Shown here: positions 27,205 to 28,250 of the stretch, one piece after another | Layout: each line of letters begins with the position of its first letter | How positions within the stretch are numbered: the stretch's first letter is position 1 | Sequence record: OM630585.1 | Strand: one strand, 5' to 3' | DNA: 64,000 nucleotides | Source of the DNA: Escherichia phage vB_EcoM_LNA6 | Position numbers and translations under genes: made by a program | Notes under the pieces: model-generated | Seen by the model: only the letters and a program-made list of their open reading frames with translations | Database searches by the model: none | Told to the model about the DNA's origin: nothing

Positions 27205-27645
27205 TTAGAAAGGTTTTCTACGTTGCTTGTTAATGTTAGCTTTCATAGCAGCTAAATGGTTTTGCTGTTCAATTAGTCGTGAACGTTCTTGATGGCTAAG
27301 TGCCATAGTGTTCACATTCTCAATTGCTTGAGTGGCTTGCTTTAAAGCTCGACCAATCTTACCAGACATTTTACGTTTTGCAATAGTTGCTTGATGCTTA
27401 GGTTCAACCACACGATAACCAACACCCATTGAAGCAACCAGATAAATCTTCTCTTCTTTAAGAAGCTTCTCAATAAACTTCTCAAGTCGGTTTAGACGTG
27501 TAAGCGCATAAGCCTTCATTTCATCTTCGTACTTAACAATGTCACCTTGATAAGTTGGCTTCACAATACCTAAGAAGGTGTCCATCTCAGAATGTGATAC
27601 AGTGTCACCGTAACTAAACTTTGCTGCTAATGCTTTCGTATTCAT
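27205..27645 (-). CDS. hypothetical protein (repeat-flanked cassette gene 2)
   Basis: 146 aa ORF, basic C-terminus; no recognisable motif. Confidence 0.45.
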   Translation of the reverse strand: MNTKALAAKFSYGDTVSHSEMDTFLGIVKPTYQGDIVKYEDEMKAYALTRLNRLEKFIEKLLKEEKIYLVASMGVGYRVVEPKHQATIAKRKMSGKIGRALKQATQAIENVNTMALSHQERSRLIEQQNHLAAMKANINKQRRKPF

Positions 27646-27647
27646 AA

Positions 27648-28250
27648 TTAAACGTTACCTTCTGAAATAACTTCTACAGAAAAACGACCAAAGCGTGGAC
27701 GCCAATCACCTACACCACAAAGGTTACCAGCATTTTCAAGAACCATCAGAAGTTCCTCTTTGGTGATTTGCTCTTCATCGAACATCAAACCGAACTCTAC
27801 AGACCAGTCACGGAAGATTGGACGGTAGTTCATAACTCGTGCTGTACCAATCTTAACAGACTTAGCATAGATGAAGTCTGGATTCTTAGCAAGTTCTTGT
27901 GGGTTTGCTGGGCAGTTCTTGATAGTCATTGGGAAGACTACATCTGTCAGCATAATGGCTCGGTCAATTACCTTACCAAGTTTATTGAGTTTTGCACCAG
28001 ACTTGATACAAGCCTCAATCATCTCACCGTTCATAACAAAACCTAGTTGGTCATCGTAGTAGCAAGAAGTTACCAGTTGACTTTCTGCTAAGAGCGCATA
28101 GTCTTCGTCAGTCTTTTTACGTTTACTGGACAGAGACTTGTGATATTTTGTCAGAGGGTTTAATGGGTCTGACAGAGTATCTGCATGGCTCAGGAAAGGA
28201 CGAGTACCAGTGATTTTGATATTTAACAGTTTCATAGCATTTAGCTCCAC
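27648..28250 (-). CDS. hypothetical protein (repeat-flanked cassette gene 1)
   Basis: 200 aa ORF with GGAG RBS; no recognisable motif. Confidence 0.45.

Follow-up and report, generated by a model that had tools for sequence, protein, structure and literature searches.

A probable type II VIPR locus of the SUSP1 clade in a Felix O1-like phage, with candidate targets in Escherichia coli satellites

VIPR (Viral Interference Programmable Repeat) was described in bioRxiv preprints of April and June 2026 as a phage-encoded system of RNA-guided DNA silencing that resembles CRISPR. Its parts are the RAMP-fold protein Vipr, an accessory vap gene and guide RNAs (vrRNAs) made of 9–16 tandem YNNGG units and an invariant tail (bioRxiv 10.64898/2026.04.26.720920, 10.64898/2026.04.26.720927), and the function given for it is to silence competing mobile elements at the level of transcription, with RNA as the guide (bioRxiv 10.64898/2026.04.26.720920). 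The system is reported to be older than CRISPR and to recognize DNA through a non-contiguous code (VIPR preprints). The type system is that of SUSP1, a phage related to the one studied here. For SUSP1, small-RNA sequencing, pull-down, electrophoretic mobility shift, green fluorescent protein and plaque assays documented vrRNAs of ~100 nucleotides, their co-purification with Vipr, binding to double-stranded DNA and repression (VIPR preprints), and cryo-electron microscopy showed the RNA held by Vipr unit by unit (bioRxiv 10.64898/2026.04.26.720927). Here, a locus of Escherichia phage vB_EcoM_LNA6 (OM630585.1), consisting of two linked genes and the repeats that flank them, is compared with these systems; the whole stretch of 64,000 nucleotides that was analyzed is referred to as the window.

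The locus had been picked out earlier from the raw sequence alone, as a repeat-flanked two-gene cassette of unknown function (the original prediction). In its sequence all the features that mark a type II VIPR of the SUSP1 clade were found, and the probability that it is such a system, carried by a Felix O1-like phage, is estimated at about 93%. The window belongs to a Felixounavirus (Felix O1-like), and the 1.8 kb round the locus share 99.8% identity with Escherichia phage Barry and 92–97% with many Felixounavirus genomes. Because VIPR was published in 2026, the locus type is already known; what is new are the assignments of guides to targets and, as leads, the orphan vrRNAs and a candidate target in an island resembling a phage-inducible chromosomal island (PICI). 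The place had been proposed as the most plausible one in the window for a novel system, and it is indeed the most interesting spot there, but the novelty of the system itself was pre-empted by that publication.

The vipr and vap1 genes

The profile of the 195-amino-acid protein family matched one solved structure, PDB 36pp, entitled "SUSP1 Vipr protein". When the protein itself was compared with 36pp as a single sequence, the match extended over the full length with E = 5.8e-128 and ~97% identity. The predicted structure has a Cas7/Csm3-type RAMP fold, and the protein fits the definition of Vipr as a minimal RAMP with RRM core, G-loop and thumb, homologous to SUSP1 Vipr. Moreover, all 13 functional residues that could be checked (H17, D177, R138, W178, E71, M72, R179, C173, K33, K82, K88, G87, and R39) were found at the same positions; these residues are named for their part in gripping either the bases of GGY or the strands of the DNA (bioRxiv 10.64898/2026.04.26.720927). 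Residue 175 (window positions 27711–27713) is a valine both here and in SUSP1 chain 36pp_D; the structural preprint speaks of "T175" in the pyrimidine pocket, which is probably a slip of numbering or typing in bioRxiv 10.64898/2026.04.26.720927.

An open reading frame of 200 amino acids, 27648..28250, had been proposed for this gene. Its end at 27648 was retained, but the start was moved to the ATG at 28235, which is preceded by GGAG with a 9-nucleotide spacer and yields 195 amino acids; the GTG at 28250 was discarded because it falls within the Shine-Dalgarno region. The revised length agrees with the 588-nucleotide gene of wV8, tootiki and Tribble and with the way residues are numbered in the solved SUSP1 structure.

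The second gene, 27205..27645 on the minus strand, agrees in every respect with its earlier description: 146 amino acids, a basic C-terminal tail (..NKQRRKPF) and a spacing of 2 nucleotides (27646–27647) between the stop of the upstream frame and its own ATG. Its product is 99.3% identical to that of the SUSP1 gene adjoining vipr, which identifies it as vap1. No motif had been recognized in either protein when the locus was predicted, and homology searching has now given both a name. The vap1 protein is not an orphan, since an exhaustive HMMER search returned 234 remote homologues. In two distant vipr loci (L141 and L142) the gene directly 3' of vipr matched the vap1 profile with E values of 1e-42 to 1e-50, and there, too, the vipr–vap1 pair is flanked by GG arrays of period 5. 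The model of vap1 is a confident one, with a predicted local distance difference test score (pLDDT) of 95.9; the fold search was non-specific and pointed only weakly to a DNA-binding fold similar to that of PadR.

Three putative vrRNA genes around the gene pair

The original prediction had pointed to homologous GG-periodic repeats on both flanks of the gene pair, and these were confirmed and are unique in the 64 kb. They comprise a 91-nucleotide repeat pair (27051–27141 and 28310–28400, 71% identity in a repeat search of the window), a 67-nucleotide repeat family with a third copy at 28467–28533, and an exact repeat of 20 nucleotides, CCTTTTTAAAAGGTCTTTAA on the coding strand, at 27158–27177 and 28438–28457. 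Runs of at least five GG units with a period of 5 nucleotides occur three times in the window, all on the minus strand and all at this locus, and 100 simulations of the window with a first-order Markov model produced none. On the coding strand, each of the three elements opens with a leader that contains GTCTT..AA..GGG(N)TTTTAA, continues as a YNNGG tract and closes with a tail of 31–33 nucleotides. The tracts hold 11, 15 and 11 units in vrRNA-a, vrRNA-b and vrRNA-c, respectively; the first two genes lie upstream of vipr and the third downstream of vap1 (Table 1).

The conservation of the units was analyzed in 55 distinct tracts parsed from 34 related loci. Position 1 of the unit was Y in 100% of cases, position 5 was G in 99% and position 4 was G in 82%, while each of the two NN positions was hypervariable and near random, with an entropy of 1.90–1.92 bits. 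Conserved GGY together with hypervariable NN is the signature of a guide and not of a recombination scar. The repeats had been taken for the boundaries of an exchanged moron, a view that is replaced here by that of functional guide-RNA genes.

The leaders and tails are shared with the four vrRNAs detected by experiment in SUSP1. The leader type of vrRNA-a also precedes SUSP1 vrRNA1 and vrRNA4, and the vrRNA-a tail is identical to those of SUSP1 vrRNA2 and vrRNA3. All three tails can be drawn as H-type pseudoknots. For type A the pseudoknot was judged by inspection, and the variants found in 37 copies were confined to loop positions. Between types B and B' there are compensatory changes in both stems. 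When B, B' and the satellite versions are compared, the type B pseudoknot has four of its 10 pairs altered on both sides with pairing kept, in a set of only six sequences and hence of low power; 93% of the cells were paired, compared with 25–53% when the partners were slid.

Neither protein matched the profile libraries of Pfam, NCBIfam or PADLOC; in PADLOC-DB v2 (2023), a library older than VIPR, there was no match at E values up to 1. PHROGs returned only families of unknown function for the two proteins, and Rfam no credible match for the vrRNAs. Therefore, none of the families to which these libraries give a function covers the two proteins or the vrRNAs.

The same tracts stand in GenBank as unexplained direct repeats on either side of genes 94 and 95, earliest as DR_4 of wV8 (EU877232) and also, under repeat_region, in tootiki, garuso, bumzen and humlepung, and the KhF3 record calls one vrRNA tract a "possible binding site of StbAB". 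The repeat annotations of all six phages can be replaced by vrRNA, and the StbAB guess is superseded. These repeats are not discussed in the genome papers of Felix O1 and UAB_Phi87. In the present window, vipr, vap1 and three vrRNA genes take the place of two "hypothetical proteins" and unexplained direct repeats.

Table 1. Features assigned at the locus, in the order of the coding (minus) strand; positions are those of the window.
Feature	Position	Strand	Description	Remarks
Putative promoter P1	28616..28643	-	sigma-70-like (TTGACA, 16 nt, TATACT), upstream of vrRNA-a	11/12 consensus positions
vrRNA-a leader	28548..28584	-	hairpin ATCACTTAA...TTAAGTGAT; conserved motif AGTCTT..AA..GGGTTTTTAA	overlaps inverted repeat I4, neighbour of I1
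vrRNA-a tract	28492..28546	-	11 units, NN = GG GA TC GA GG AA AT GC GC TT AT	
vrRNA-a 3' tail	28461..28491	-	type A, H-type pseudoknot GTAG-TTA-GTCTCA-G-CTAC-ATTAAAA-TGAGAC, then T-run	
vrRNA-b leader	28419..28457	-	CCTTTTTAAAAGGTCTTTAAACAGGGGCTTTTAATAAGG; holds one copy of the 20-nt exact repeat	
vrRNA-b tract	28344..28418	-	15 units, NN = TG GA GA AT GC GG TT TA CC CA AT AT GA GA AT	
vrRNA-b 3' tail	28311..28343	-	type B, pseudoknot GTGG-A-TGGTAG-TAG-CCAC-GTTAAAAAT-CTACCA	identical to SUSP1 vrRNA1 tail
vipr	27648..28235	-	195-aa RAMP-fold protein predicted to coat vrRNA	~97% identity to SUSP1 Vipr
vap1	27205..27645	-	146-aa VIPR accessory protein	99.3% identity to SUSP1 gene
Terminator-like hairpin	27178..27193	-	intrinsic-terminator-like, AGCCTCTTCGGAGGCT then T-run, 3' of vap1	
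vrRNA-c leader	27140..27177	-	holds second copy of the 20-nt exact repeat	
vrRNA-c tract	27085..27139	-	11 units, NN = AT AT GT TT TA AT TA GT AA AA AT	
vrRNA-c 3' tail	27052..27084	-	type B', pseudoknot AAGG-A-TGGCAG-TAG-CCTT-ATAAAAAAT-CTGCCA	identical to SUSP1 vrRNA4 tail
AT-rich hairpin	27006..27052	-	TTGACA promoter-like site inside, before the next gene (127-aa ORF)	inverted repeat I1; 10/12 promoter positions

Candidate targets of the three guides

By analogy with SUSP1, the three flanking elements would give rise to vrRNAs of ~100 nucleotides, on which Vipr protomers would polymerize, one per YNNGG unit, with GGY hidden and NN exposed. The resulting filament would bind double-stranded DNA by reading NNxNNx..., with one base skipped per unit, and the R-loop triplex so formed would block transcription, with vap1 strengthening the silencing. 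During infection, the phage would be expected to silence a satellite recombinase of the integrase/excisionase type and to keep the satellite from excising and exploiting it.

SUSP1-clade guides have been reported to converge on an E. coli satellite with phage-like baseplate and tape-measure genes, and 18 of the 20 assignable guides did so in the published pangenome search (VIPR preprint). Satellites were located here through the phage gene next to the tape measure, and 11 satellite loci (L011–L017 and L135–L138) were taken. The baseplate gene of this satellite family was present in 474 of 5,426 complete E. coli genomes (~9%). Complete satellites measure ~10–12 kb and carry serine recombinases, small genes, and tape-measure and baseplate genes related to those of the phage itself; two of the 11 were truncated or disrupted. 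At least four insertion sites were seen (yciI–tonB, lafU–dinB, ymdF–wrbA, and within a gene with a DUF72 domain that adjoins yecN). Each intact satellite has its large serine recombinase in a terminal position, and guides from different phages cover most of its length as tiles.

Guides were scanned against these satellites with the published one-nucleotide skip, and 200 unit-order shuffles of each guide served as the null. As a positive control, the scan gave matches of 88–91% for SUSP1 vrRNA1, vrRNA2 and vrRNA4 within a satellite. The vrRNA-a guide matched at 19 of 22 positions (shuffle maximum 18, n = 200) in the large serine recombinase gene of the yciI/tonB satellites (L011 16183–16214 and L015 15185–15216). 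The vrRNA-b guide matched at 25 of 30 positions in the large serine recombinase gene of a satellite in the DUF72 gene (L013 15478–15521) and at 24 of 30 in L014, from a second strain, with a shuffle maximum of 23 (n = 200). At both sites the match keeps to the reading frame and the skipped base falls on the wobble position of the codon, an arrangement reported as typical (VIPR preprint), and both targeted proteins have Resolvase, Recombinase and Zn-ribbon domains. In the clade as a whole, 30 of the 55 guides scored at least 80%, and higher than any of their shuffles, against the first seven satellites, and nearly all of these matches lay inside the satellite borders. No self-target of at least 80% was found in the 64-kb window, where the best matches were 16/22 for vrRNA-a, 18/30 for vrRNA-b and 16/22 for vrRNA-c, and no homologues of vipr or vap1 were found in the seven satellites searched.

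These matches suggest that two of the three guides, vrRNA-a and vrRNA-b, are aimed at satellite recombinase genes, a concrete assignment that is new. The description of the cassette as a candidate anti-defence module would thus hold in a loose sense only, the published function being the silencing of competing mobile elements and the targets found being phage satellites, not host defence. Since the satellite baseplate gene occurs in ~9% of complete E. coli genomes, the conflict between phage and satellite is probably relevant to the Felix O1-like phages used in typing, biocontrol and therapy.

The third guide, vrRNA-c, is the commonest in the clade and was found in identical form in tootiki, Tribble, LF82P3, KhF3 and two IMG/VR phages. 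A candidate site for it, AACATAGTTTTGTATATATACGTGAAAAATAA, matches at 20 of 22 positions overall and at 18 of 18 in the nine central units. It lies in an element of ~16 kb and ~51% GC, inserted in E. coli between yhdJ and fis (at ~11986–12017 of L177, E. coli ET670) and present 13 times in IMG/VR (L144, L147, L152, L154, L157–L161, L165, and L174–L176). The gene content of the yhdJ–fis island (integrase, AlpA, antirepressor, primase, capsid, portal and terminase, but no tail genes) corresponds to that of a capsid-forming PICI (bioRxiv 10.1101/2025.02.11.637232). The candidate site is located 12–43 nucleotides upstream of a gene for 111 amino acids, no sigma-70-like promoter was detected at it, and a 12-unit variant of the guide matches the same place at 22 of 24 positions. 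The full 22-base pattern had no exact match in IMG/VR. Three shuffled vrRNA-c patterns returned 8–16 IMG/VR hits each, all in contigs with a GC of at most 0.42 and none in contigs of enteric-like GC; these controls and the 12-unit variant speak for the site. A contig scan with an 18-base vrRNA-c pattern gave 93 hits in unrelated organisms, none of them named as enterobacterial, and was taken as chance. The known helpers of capsid-forming PICIs are siphoviruses. The PICI-like site is kept as a lead and not as a finding, because the guide is AT-rich, so that chance matches are not negligible, and because of the nature of those helpers. This class of element is not mentioned in the main text of the discovery preprint.

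Distribution, alternative readings and comparison with known systems

Among Felixounavirus-type records, vipr and vap1 were each found in 117, and the region from the ligase to the next gene was matched in 259. Roughly half of the related phages thus carry the cassette, as expected for the variably present accessory module that had been proposed; conservation of the cassette is not universal, and every locus with the two genes has the repeats as well, so that neither outcome named beforehand as refuting the original prediction was observed. Alleles without the cassette were found in Si3, humlepung and one LF82P3 record (OZ035779). A second LF82P3 record has the cassette, and the two were considered as a deletion pair; this was rejected, since their guides differ and they are therefore different phages. 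A Felix O1-type locus with Vipr and vap1 is also present in GU169904.1 (Staphylococcus phage SA1, 147 kb; ~95–96% identity over 96–97% of the query), and two records listed under "Campylobacter" hold a locus of this type as well; these records are probably chimeric or misattributed.

The repeats also persist in phages that lack both genes. In the Salmonella phage Si3 (L006/L139), vipr and vap1 were absent from the whole 84,419-bp genome (tblastn E values of at least 1, no profile hit), and one vrRNA gene is kept at record positions 33843–34124, with promoter, leader, 11 units and tail. Two vrRNA genes are kept in humlepung and in several IMG/VR phages without vipr and vap1, and the loci of this kind besides Si3, with one or two complete vrRNA genes at the same site, are L004, L007, L112, L121, L127 and L131. 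Some of the orphan guides match E. coli satellites at 82–91%. Orphan vrRNAs may be relics, or guides used with Vipr supplied in trans. Additionally, the satellite L015 (E. coli GN4751) carries at 6054–6126, on its minus strand, a vrRNA of its own with 14 units, whose tail (GTGG-A-TTGTCG-TAG-CCAC-...-CGAC) covaries with the phage tails; it has no vipr, and therefore would need the Vipr of a helper phage. Satellite-borne vrRNAs are mentioned in the VIPR preprint; neither the word "orphan" nor Felix O1-type phages occur in the main text of the discovery preprint. We put forward as a tentative and rather unlikely proposal that vrRNA genes circulate independently of vipr, the orphans loading the Vipr of a helper or co-infecting phage ("guide piracy"), and that, separately, vrRNA-c polices a second class of parasite, the capsid-forming PICIs, from a site just upstream of a gene that separates their replication module from their capsid module.

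The polymorphism of the cassette among relatives could also be that of a passive moron, two genes moving by recombination between functionless flanking direct repeats. Its bracketing by homologous sequence that includes a 20-nucleotide exact repeat would fit this, as would the humlepung allele, which has the architecture expected from recombination between two L2-type leaders. However, functionless repeats would not account for conserved GGY with hypervariable NN, for structured and covarying tails, for guides that match satellite genes in frame, or for repeats that outlast the genes, and the protein between them is nearly identical (~97%) to a solved Vipr, a binder of exactly such RNAs, so that a passive moron appears extremely unlikely. 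If the tracts were instead a structural element without guide function, such as G-quadruplex tracts, a CsrA-type sponge or the iterons of a replication origin or partition site, the whole repeat would be conserved and not GGY alone with NN randomized, and in-frame matches to satellite coding sequence would not be expected. The tracts are indeed G-rich, periodic and confined to one strand, and the KhF3 label points to such a role, but Rfam had no match and the cryo-electron microscopy of the near-identical system shows Vipr placed on the RNA unit by unit. In view of the conservation pattern and the targets, the G-quadruplex, CsrA-sponge and iteron readings were dropped, and a structural element of any of these kinds is almost certainly not the explanation.

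A VIPR whose main targets lie in the host chromosome, in other phages or in the phage's own genes, as a regulator or anti-defence system with only incidental satellite matches, would accommodate vrRNA-c, which has no match in the tape-measure satellites, and other target classes are reported in the preprint for other VIPR clades. It is very unlikely in the face of the 30 of 55 clade guides that match the seven satellites above every shuffle and nearly always within their borders, the lack of any self-target of at least 80% in the window, and the published convergence of SUSP1-clade guides on the satellite. The assignment to type II VIPR is itself weakened by several points. All of the mechanism is carried over from SUSP1, on the strength of a Vipr ~97% identical, and the role given for vap1 goes no further than "enhances protection", its fold search being non-specific. 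Units 1–3 of vrRNA-b are degenerate and end in TG, not GG. The 5' ends assigned to the vrRNAs are provisional, and these RNAs may be made from promoters of their own or by processing. The target matches reach 83–86% and are not perfect, in a sample of only 11 satellites, and in these vrRNA-c had no match of at least 80% or above background; its candidate site elsewhere depends on a pattern rich in A and T.

The surroundings of the locus are as originally described. On the minus strand, the DNA ligase gene lies upstream, and the genes for dihydrofolate reductase and thymidylate synthase follow downstream, past small hypothetical genes. Terminator-like hairpins had been noted, and one, with a T-run, follows the 146-amino-acid gene. 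The putative promoter P1 is kept in relatives with and without the cassette. The AT-rich hairpin at 27006..27052 was found in all relatives compared and forms the downstream edge of the locus; it probably lies outside VIPR proper. The stretch from the ligase stop to the putative promoter of vrRNA-a contains a strongly hydrophobic open reading frame of 48 amino acids (MFSTVILFILVVFVLSYVASKLL..., window 28651–28797, minus strand), which is also present in LF82P3 and humlepung, is missing in Si3 and gives way to different sequence in SUSP1; with it, the ligase–vrRNA-a intergenic region has a second variable part.

The locus is not a CRISPR system. Its backbone protein has its counterparts in the Cas7 family of Class 1 CRISPR-Cas (Csm3, Cmr4, and Csf2), but there is no repeat-spacer array here, nor cas1/cas2 or other cas genes: the only repeats at the locus are the 5-nucleotide units and the leader and tail copies, and no Cas family was matched in Pfam, NCBIfam or PADLOC. 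Unlike a CRISPR guide, the guide is a tandem repeat of 5 nucleotides with two informative bases per unit, every third target base is skipped, and the system is encoded by a phage. The type II VIPR of a Pseudomonas fulva prophage and the other VIPR types (I–VII) share with this locus the Vipr RAMP, the GGY/NN vrRNAs and the one-nucleotide skip, whereas their targets are resident prophage regulators and not satellites. Distant VIPR loci of phages and metagenomes have proteins only ~23–50% identical, and the arrays of L141 and L142 end in GGGCT.

The closest relative is the VIPR of SUSP1. It differs in the arrangement of the vrRNAs, with one upstream and three downstream in SUSP1 as against two upstream and one downstream here, in its four guides, from which all three of the present ones are distinct, and in its carrier, a Suspvirus and not a Barry-like Felixounavirus. 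In contrast, the two loci agree in Vipr (~97% identity) and vap1 (99.3%), in both leader types, in tails A, B and B', in the slot between the DNA ligase gene and the block of small genes before those for dihydrofolate reductase and thymidylate synthase, and in their targets, which for both appear to be satellites of E. coli that carry genes for a tape measure and a baseplate.

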